From IMG/VR virus record IMGVR_UViG_2711768065_000005: a DNA stretch of 38,499 nt. One strand, written 5' to 3'. This DNA comes from a virus (lineage: Duplodnaviria; Heunggongvirae; Uroviricota; Caudoviricetes). Of the stretch, positions 24,300-25,188 are shown one piece after another. Under the pieces are notes generated by a model. The model was not told where the DNA came from. It searched no databases and saw nothing but the letters and a program-made list of their open reading frames with translations. Both the position numbers and the translations under genes were made by a program. Position 1 is the stretch's first letter; each line of letters begins with the position of its first letter.

Positions 24300-24330
24300 A
24301 AAGCACAAAACCCGCTCATCAGCGGGTTTT
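24300..24330. terminator. Bidirectional intrinsic terminator; candidate tR' of the late operon
   Basis: Stem aaaacccgc/gcgggtttt (24307..24330) with loop tcatca; U-tracts on both strands (plus ctacttttt, minus ttttgtgcttt). Confidence 0.5.
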
Positions 24331-24375
24331 CTACTTTTTCTTAACGTCGGGTATACAAAGCCCATCGTTGAAAAA

Positions 24376-24404
24376 ATTTTATCCATATTTTTTGAAAAAT
24401 GCAA
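24376..24404 (-). promoter_or_regulatory. Candidate late promoter PR' (sigma70), about 30 bp downstream of Q
   Basis: Minus strand reads TTGCAT (-35, 24404..24399), 17-bp spacer, TAAAAT (-10, 24381..24376); the terminator hairpin lies about 45-65 nt downstream of the predicted start. Confidence 0.45.
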
Positions 24405-24435
24405 ACATCATGTCGCCATCTTCAGCAAAAATCAT

Positions 24436-25188
24436 TTATCTCGTCACCTTCCTCAATTGCGCTTCCGCGTATGCTTCTTCCTGCCAGCACTTTGTTACCA
24501 GTTTATCAATGACGTCCGCATACCCCTTATACCACTGATAATCGGTCAGGTCTGGTACCAGCTTCTGGACATGACGTCGTGCCAGCGTGGTCGGTAAACG
24601 ACTAAATCGGTTTCCATTACAACGCCCACAAATCTTATATACCGGTACGCCATGAAACCGGGTTCTTTTTTCATCCAGAACAATCCCTTTACCCTTACAC
24701 CCTCTGCACGCTGTGCTGACTTCGCCCTTACCATGGCAATGCTGACATAGTTCCTTCACCCATTCTTCCTTGATTACAGATTCCCCGCGTCTGTAGTGTT
24801 TCACCACTTCGCGCAATACATTATAAAATCCCGTACCTGAACAATGCTCACAGCGAGCCTTACTTGCCGCAGACCTGGAGTAATCAGCAAAGGCAAAATT
24901 CACAAGGTAAGGAATAATCTGTAACCGGATTTCTTCACTCAATTTGTTCAATGTCGGGTTATCCAGTGCCATCGCGTAATTTAGCAGGCCTTCAATCGCA
25001 AACTGAGGGTCCTGAACACCAACTTTTGCCAGAAATAAGGCCAACCCAAGTGGTGCTTTCGACTGCACCATCCCCTGCGCTGCCATTACATCCGTAATTG
25101 TTAAACAACCGGTGCCTGTCGCTGGAGCGTCATCGCTCAATTTTGGAGATTTTGGGGAGTAATATTTTGGTAAGGCTTCAAGGTTCAT
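24436..25188 (-). CDS. quuQ: Late-gene antiterminator Q (phage 82/QuuQ type)
   Basis: 250 aa; MNLEALPKYYSPKSPKLSDDAPATGTG...; Cys/His zinc-binding cluster CEHCSGTG...CQHCHGKGE...CRGCKGKG...CGRCNG. Confidence 0.85.
   Translation of the reverse strand: MNLEALPKYYSPKSPKLSDDAPATGTGCLTITDVMAAQGMVQSKAPLGLALFLAKVGVQDPQFAIEGLLNYAMALDNPTLNKLSEEIRLQIIPYLVNFAFADYSRSAASKARCEHCSGTGFYNVLREVVKHYRRGESVIKEEWVKELCQHCHGKGEVSTACRGCKGKGIVLDEKRTRFHGVPVYKICGRCNGNRFSRLPTTLARRHVQKLVPDLTDYQWYKGYADVIDKLVTKCWQEEAYAEAQLRKVTR

Follow-up and report, generated by a model that had tools for sequence, protein, structure and literature searches.

A predicted lambda-type late promoter, pause element and terminator downstream of the antiterminator gene quuQ in a Qin-type prophage of Escherichia coli

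The viral sequence record IMGVR_UViG_2711768065_000005 (IMG/VR; Caudoviricetes), a stretch of 38,499 nucleotides (nt) referred to here as the window, carries a Qin-type lambdoid prophage of Escherichia coli. Its gene quuQ (ydfT), which encodes an antitermination protein of the Q-lambda family, is followed on the minus strand by a compact cassette consisting of a predicted late promoter (PR'), a putative sigma70-dependent pause element and a terminator hairpin (tR'). Between this terminator and the lysis genes lie ynfS and cspF, both antisense to the cassette, and then cspB, while the late lysis genes (holin, DUF1327 protein, lysozyme and RzpQ) are all located on the minus strand, the same as the promoter (Table 1; window positions are used throughout, and the cassette is read on the minus strand unless stated otherwise). 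Late control cassettes of this class have been described as comprising a Q gene, PR', a Q-binding element, a sigma-dependent pause element, a terminator and the late genes (PMC9388147). At the level of sequence, the window contains a PF03589 Q gene, a PR', the pause hexamer, an intrinsic terminator and late genes on the same strand, and the cassette is probably the late-gene control region of a Qin-type lambdoid prophage with an antiterminator of the Q-lambda family. A preliminary description of this DNA had proposed a lambdoid layout of PR', qut/pause site and tR', which is supported by the family of the Q protein, the register shared with lambda and P22, the AACGATGGG motif and a 3' end mapped in vivo at 24303.

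Table 1. Features of the cassette and of the surrounding genes (window coordinates; ORF, open reading frame; UTR, untranslated region)
Feature	Position	Strand	Basis or remark
ydfU, DUF968 protein	25202-26290	-	ORF
quuQ/ydfT, 250-aa Q-lambda-family antiterminator, long form	24436-25188 (TAA stop 24438-24436)	-	Pfam PF03589, PDB 7UBM, Q alignment, RefSeq name
Predicted PR' -35 element TTGCAT	24404-24399	-	sequence; 31 nt past Q stop codon
17-nt spacer tTTTCAAAAAATATgga, putative Q-binding element	24398-24382	-	lambda match, phi80 annotation
Predicted PR' -10 element TAAAAT	24381-24376	-	sequence, promoter scan
Predicted +1 (A)	24369	-	register with lambda and P22
Putative sigma70-dependent pause element: -10-like AACGAT (+1 to +6) and GGG (+7 to +9)	24369-24361	-	identity to lambda PR'
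5'-terminal leader hairpin (+1 to +27)	24369-24343	-	minimum-energy folds, family covariation
tR' hairpin AAAACCCGCU-GAUG-AGCGGGUUUU (core CCCGCU-GAUG-AGCGGG, with A/U extensions)	24330-24307	-	fold, scan
U-rich tail UUUUGUGCUUU	24310-24300	-	mapped 3' end at 24303
ynfS, small gene	24069-24158	+	points toward the Q gene, converges on the leader
cspF	23802-24014	+	points toward the Q gene, converges on the leader
cspB	ORF 23286-23501; 5' UTR and gene 23270-23662	-	Rfam/ORF
Terminator past cspB	23004-22985	-	scan
P21-type holin ORF	22317-22607	-	
ydfR (DUF1327 protein)	22094-22312	-	
Lysozyme rrrQ	21112-21645	-	
rzpQ (spanin)	20618-21115	-	

QuuQ is a Q-lambda-family antiterminator. The protein matches Pfam PF03589 (E=7.7e-55), a family equated with Q-lambda in PMC9388147, and it aligns with the Q-lambda structures 7UBM (E=5.7e-37, over both ends) and 4MO1 (E=1.5e-24), while the RefSeq entry for the gene reads ydfT, antitermination protein. 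Alignment with the Q proteins of lambda, P22 and phi80, among others, shows QuuQ to be of a long form with approximately 40 extra residues that carry a second zinc motif, CxxCxGxG. The insert is common to phi80, HK225 and most other Q proteins of the family, with lambda and P22 Q representing the short form. Across the family the inserts range from 40 to 75 residues, and CxxCxGxG is located just ahead of the zinc ribbon that, in lambda, contacts DNA and sigma region 4. A literature search on quuQ and ydfT returned nothing on the promoter considered here.

The hexamers TTGCAT and TAAAAT, separated by 17 nt, are present on the minus strand immediately beyond the Q stop codon, where the preliminary description had placed them. 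Its term 'near-consensus' is too strong for the -35 element, which matches TTGACA at only three of six positions with the 17-nt spacer (an alternative -35, TTTGCA with an 18-nt spacer, has four matches). The -10 element matches five of six consensus positions. By itself the promoter match is no more than chance, as a scan of 3.5 kb found 10 promoter-like sites against 7.4 +/- 2.9 expected from shuffled sequence. The composite of the lambda type, TANNNT-N6-AACGATGG, occurs once in the window, at this site, against 0.01 occurrences expected. The lambda PR' reads TTGACT-tattgaataaaattggg-TAAATT-tgactc-AACGATGGG and the window reads TTGCAT-ttttcaaaaaatatgga-TAAAAT-tttttc-AACGATGGG, co-linear with the PR' of both lambda and P22: the -35 element, 17 nt, the -10 element, 6 nt and AACGATGGG at +1 to +9 follow one another in exactly the lambda/P22 register. 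The spacer (also given as TTTCAAAAAATAT) is identical to that of lambda, tATTGAATAAAATTggg, at 11 of 17 bases by hand count, and a Q site is annotated at the spacer position in the phi80 record. In the P22 record the 5' nucleotide of the late RNA is the first A of AACGAT; because of this annotation and of the register with lambda and P22, transcription is predicted to start at 24369, the position that had been proposed at the outset. The -35 position is occupied by TTGACT in lambda and P22 and by TTGCAT in phi80 and Klebsiella phage 5, and the -10 element is TAAGAT or TAGGAT in relatives. The role of the sigma-dependent pause element has been described in PMC9388147. The bases at +16 and +17 are unlike those of lambda, so the exact pause position may differ.

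The hairpin of tR' begins 46 nt and ends 69 nt past the -10 element and is followed by GUGCUUU. The 75-nt segment 24370-24296 folds into two hairpins with a free energy of -30.5 kcal/mol, compared with a shuffle mean of -12.9 (z = -7.2; none of 200 shuffles was as stable). The strong hairpin with flanking U-tracts that had been reported is thus present, except that its upstream tract consists of A on the minus strand; the A-tract on the 5' side and the U-tract on the 3' side give the hairpin the shape of a two-way terminator, and the terminator scan called it on the plus strand only. The homologous hairpin is annotated as a terminator in the records of phages SfV and Ayreon. In the lineage of Qin and phage 2H10 the leader ahead of the hairpin is A-rich (GAAAAAGUAGAAAA), and SfV-type relatives are without the A-tract. 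On the plus strand this A-tract is a U-tract for the same hairpin, facing the convergent cspF-ynfS unit.

Published K-12 data place a 3' end at this terminator. The 201 bases centred on the cassette are 100% identical to K-12 MG1655 and are present in 1629 of 5426 complete E. coli genomes. Positions in U00096.3 are given here as the window position plus 1,618,053, an offset derived from ynfS. In the Term-seq data that Adams et al. 2021 (PMC7815308) published as a supplement, an 'orphan' 3' end is listed at 1642356 on the minus strand, which corresponds to window position 24303, the C in UUUUGUGC (flanks ...AAAACCCGCTGATGAGCGGGTTTTGTG[C]TTTAAATGGG). The file comprises a separate sheet for each of three growth conditions and contains this end three times, with counts of 103,591 and 55,368 in two of the three entries; the end does not appear in the table of Rho-dependent ends in the same paper. 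Taken with the predicted +1, it would delimit an RNA of 67 nt. A second 'orphan' minus-strand end, at 1642188 (window 24135), was listed in one condition only; it is located 168 nt beyond 24303, antisense to ynfS, with no hairpin nearby, and it may derive from leaky termination at the weak U-tract or from RNA processing.

A plus-strand 3' end antisense to ydfT, at 1643015 in U00096.3 (approximately 24962 in the window, inside quuQ), comes from the Rho-dependent (bicyclomycin) table of PMC7815308. It recalls paQ of lambda and a23 of P22, both within Q genes, the latter annotated in the P22 record.

SfV, mEp460, Ayreon, 2H10 and Stx2c-converting phages all have a conserved counterpart of the whole segment, Q gene through hairpin, and their Q proteins are 94-96% identical to QuuQ. 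In SfV, mEp460, Ayreon and 15 Stx2c-converting phages the similarity (83-85%) covers the Q gene and the DNA after it as far as the final hairpin base, 24307, where it ceases; between the Q stop and the hairpin, the DNA of these modules and of that in 2H10 is 83-92% identical, and the part from -35 to +17 is essentially the same. The module is retained in all of approximately 78 close relatives with downstream sequence, with the -35 TTGCAT invariant in every one. In 23 distinct variants drawn from collections of phages and viral contigs, the region from -35 to about +17, spacer included, is nearly invariant, and the end of the Q gene, the middle of the leader and everything beyond the hairpin vary, with the segment between the two leader hairpins (+28 to +39) differing among close relatives and at least five distinct downstream contexts joined at the U-tract. 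Ten loci outside the search pattern still have the module, with a -10 of TAGGAT or a pause element of AATGAT. Most of the close phage modules differ from that of the window in being without the upstream A-tract, and the downstream cargo consists of stx2c behind transfer RNA genes in Stx2c phages and of a methylase in mEp460 and Ayreon. The order of the window, namely Q, cassette, cspF (antisense), cspB and lysis genes, recurs in phages 2H10 and PhiR42_1; since 2H10 is an isolated phage with this order, a working phage evidently tolerates the csp arrangement.

In Stx2c-converting phages the same Q-PR'-tR' cassette, without a difference between -35 and +17, precedes stx2A by 2.7 kb; both are on one strand, and tRNA-Met and tRNA-Arg are located between the cassette and stx2A (LC727876.1, 1492-4234). 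By this correspondence, the Qin cassette of K-12 is an ortholog of the late switch ahead of stx2c.

Comparison with well-studied phages refines this picture. The lambda PR'/qut/tR' region shares with the window the Q family, the order and spacing of the elements, AACGATGGG at +1 to +9, the 11 spacer bases and an intrinsic terminator ahead of the lysis genes. It differs in that its leader is 194 nt rather than 67 nt, its Q protein has 207 rather than 250 residues and no second zinc motif, the TTGACT beside its pause element is TTTTTT in the window, and no sequence similarity extends past about +9; here, moreover, cold-shock genes, one of them antisense, separate the terminator from the holin gene. 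Along the leader, similarity to lambda 6S RNA was found at +1 to +9 only. The link to 6S RNA, an analogy that had been drawn earlier, is one of position and function and not of RNA homology. The leader of the window more closely resembles the short leaders of P22 and phi80 than it does lambda 6S RNA. The P22 region P-late/gene 23/t-late is likewise a short-leader cassette, with a terminator at +31 to +59, while phi80 pR' has a TTGCAT -35, a Q site annotated in the spacer and a terminator about 50-80 nt past the -10 element. P22 and phi80 differ from the window in that their Q proteins are only 34-40% identical to QuuQ, their spacer and leader sequences are other ones, and their lysis genes follow directly, with no csp insert.

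Several observations weigh against late control by this cassette. No 5' end at 24369 was present among the listed entries of the Term-seq (Adams 2021), Cappable-seq and RNET-seq supplements, nor was a start at this position found in the sigma-factor table of transcription start sites (Cho 2014, gene-assigned starts only). The -35 element is a poor match to the consensus, as noted above, and the -35-like TTGACT that in lambda stands one base before the pause hexamer, and there serves as the site for repositioned sigma region 4, is replaced by TTTTTT. At this position close relatives have TTTTTC or TTTTCC, and TTGACT is likewise missing there in Klebsiella phage 5 and HK225; this motif is specific to lambda and P22 and does not define the family. 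The U-tract of the terminator is broken after four U's, compared with five in 2H10 and seven in SfV, mEp460, Ayreon and the Stx2c phages, and the 24135 end may hint at some read-through that is independent of Q. A sigma70 start upstream of ydfU-ydfT is on record for K-12, so the mapped 24303 end could partly stem from the ydfU-ydfT transcript. Finally, Qin is cryptic in K-12, and its function may have decayed.

Established are the elements in the sequence, with their register and conservation, the family to which QuuQ belongs and, in K-12, an in vivo 3' end at the terminator; the proposed mode of action is modelled on lambda. RNA polymerase with sigma70 would start constitutively at PR' (+1 at 24369), for which the production of lambda 6S RNA in lysogens provides a precedent. 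Sigma region 2 would then re-bind AACGAT (+1 to +6) on the non-template strand, and the polymerase would be held for a time at about +13 to +17. If no Q is present, it would resume and terminate at 24330-24307, releasing the 67-nt leader with its end at 24303. QuuQ would bind the spacer DNA between the -35 and -10 elements and load onto the paused complex, probably together with NusA as for Q-lambda, and the polymerase so modified would become resistant to terminators. Read-through would proceed antisense across ynfS and cspF, pass cspB with its terminator and reach the genes for holin, lysozyme and spanin. A path antisense through cspF to cspB and the lysis genes had been foreseen in the preliminary description, and the order and strands of the genes bear it out; the gene order in 2H10 is the same. 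The activity of the promoter, its precise start, the pausing, the binding of Q and read-through in response to Q are all predicted here from the likeness to lambda and P22.

The leader was also considered in the context of the wider Q-lambda family. Family genes were taken from 80 species-level Enterobacterales genomes and from reference phages, with the promoter and pause element placed automatically; approximately 15 of 80 distant loci, in which the pause element does not fit NANNNT, were left out. A terminator-like hairpin is present in 56 of 62 distinct cassettes, its 3' end falling mostly in the range +51 to +74 (median +64; +63 in the window). Short leaders of approximately 60-70 nt are thus the rule in the family, to which the 194-nt 6S RNA of lambda is the exception.

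In the window, the 5' end of the leader itself is predicted to form a hairpin, in which AACG at +1 to +4 pairs with CGUU at +24 to +27 and UGGG pairs with CCCG. In leaders of the family generally, the transcribed pause element (+1 to +4 or +5) has its pairing partner at about +19 to +27, with the arms covarying as AACG/CGTT, AACA/TGTT, AATG/CATT and AAGGA/UUCUU. Of 55 distinct leaders, 45 have an exact Watson-Crick complement of +1 to +4 in the interval +12 to +34, compared with 24.5 +/- 2.7 under permutation of labels (maximum 36 in 20,000 trials). The pairing changes with class: TGTT occurs in all eight AACA leaders but in 3 of 34 AACG leaders, and CATT in five of nine AATG leaders but in 2 of 34 AACG leaders. 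The 5' end is paired in the minimum-energy fold of 39 of 55 leaders, compared with 32% of shuffles, and native 5' arms are more stable than swapped ones (Wilcoxon p about 1e-6). These statistics ignore phylogeny. A version of the covariation test that allowed G-U pairs was not discriminating (AACGA and AAUGA both pair with UCGUU), and RNAalifold on 24 family leaders returned no structure; MAFFT without gaps in the variable loop had misaligned the 3' arms, and alignment-free tests took the place of RNAalifold. In the literature collection searched, no paper on the 5' leader hairpin was found.

It is conceivable, though unlikely, that the 67-nt leader is a constitutive stable RNA with a function of its own, or that the 5' hairpin is an unrecognized functional part of Q-lambda-family late transcripts. 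If so, a stable leader RNA would be made in approximately 30% of complete E. coli genomes, K-12 included, and by the same cassette upstream of stx2c, and the hairpin could, for example, stabilize the 5' end of the leader and of the late mRNA.

The principal rival explanation is that the hairpin serves mainly as the 3' terminator of ydfU-quuQ and of the convergent cspF-ynfS unit, that the mapped end derives from transcripts initiated upstream and that PR' is inactive or negligible. The K-12 start already mentioned, a sigma70 start listed 500 nt upstream of ydfU for the unit ydfU;ydfT, could supply such transcripts, and the symmetric hairpin, called as a plus-strand terminator, the weak -35 and the missing 5' end at 24369 in the datasets checked would all fit. 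However, promoter, spacer and pause element are nearly unchanged across variants with diverged flanks, and they stand in exact register with PR' of lambda and P22, while no plus-strand 3' end is listed at the hairpin in the Term-seq data. The count of 103,591 is of similar magnitude to the 108,195 recorded for the leuL attenuator, also on the minus strand, and is, in our own estimation, high for the end of a repressed prophage operon. This explanation is therefore considered unlikely, although the hairpin may terminate ydfU-quuQ transcripts too, as that role and the role in the PR' leader are not mutually exclusive.

A trans-acting role of the leader, as a constitutive regulatory small RNA comparable to StxS, seems quite improbable. 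StxS of Stx1 and Stx2a phages likewise arises as a by-product of a late promoter that is constitutively active and constitutively terminated in the lysogen, and its authors propose antiterminated phage promoters as a source of small RNAs; in addition, lambda 6S RNA is made in lysogens and recovered with Hfq. The 3' end of the leader is reproducible in K-12 Term-seq, the RNA has two stable hairpins, and the locus is as widespread among E. coli genomes as stated above. Against this, the tail at the 3' end, UUUUGUGC, is shorter than is typical of Hfq-dependent small RNAs, the sequence at +28 to +39 differs between close relatives as would be expected of an unconstrained spacer, and no target, Hfq or ProQ data were found for the leader. 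StxS, by contrast, has proven Hfq binding and targets, and it belongs to a system with a 144-aa Q of another clade and a 258-nt interval, from which RNase E cuts the RNA to 74 nt.

In an Rfam 15 search (4 kb, then the 141-nt core), the leader remained below all gathering thresholds (best 16-22 bits against 41-55), a further point against the trans-acting reading. The sub-threshold matches were driven by the terminator and spread over many unrelated families. One of them, a match to isrK, spans exactly the leader; at 16.6 bits against a threshold of 50, among approximately 30 equally weak unrelated families, it was rejected.

That promoter-like hexamers, whose frequency in this AT-rich region is about that of shuffled sequence, stand by chance beside an ordinary terminator with no role in late control is effectively excluded because the lambda-type composite is expected only 0.01 times in the window, and the site, moreover, follows directly upon a Q-lambda-family gene and is conserved across phages and genera.

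The surroundings of the cassette yielded further observations. A 595-aa ORF with DUF7380 and DUF4209 domains (27896-29683, plus strand) adjoins hokD, at a site where Qin of K-12 has relB, relE, ydfV and flxA; because of this replacement, the window is a Qin variant with other cargo than K-12, not K-12 itself. The cspB leader matches the Rfam cspA thermoregulator at 158.8 bits. Approximately 110 nt past cspB (about 23139-23190, minus strand) there is a strong Shine-Dalgarno sequence, UAAGGAGGU, with an 11-codon ORF, MKQWLAYLAKS, the AUG of which coincides with 3' ends of very high count in the Term-seq data (1641226 and 1641224 in U00096.3, minus strand). A 51-codon ORF with a TTG start (24249-24404, minus strand), annotated as a hypothetical protein in phage PhiR42_1, spans the promoter and leader. 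It starts upstream of the predicted +1, the AUG in AACGAUGGG (+5) is without a ribosome-binding site, and the ORF is most likely not a gene.

The late control cassette described here is an ordinary element of a textbook class that is not annotated at this locus. Its recognition would provide a straightforward origin for an 'orphan' 3' end in K-12 Term-seq, would add a promoter, a pause site and a terminator, all previously unannotated, to the map of Qin, and would place cspF and cspB inside a prophage late transcription unit. Expression of QuuQ would then give rise to an antisense transcript of cspF and to the co-transcription of cspB with the lysis genes. As the same cassette is located 2.7 kb upstream of stx2A, the harmless K-12 copy could serve as a model for the late control of stx2c.

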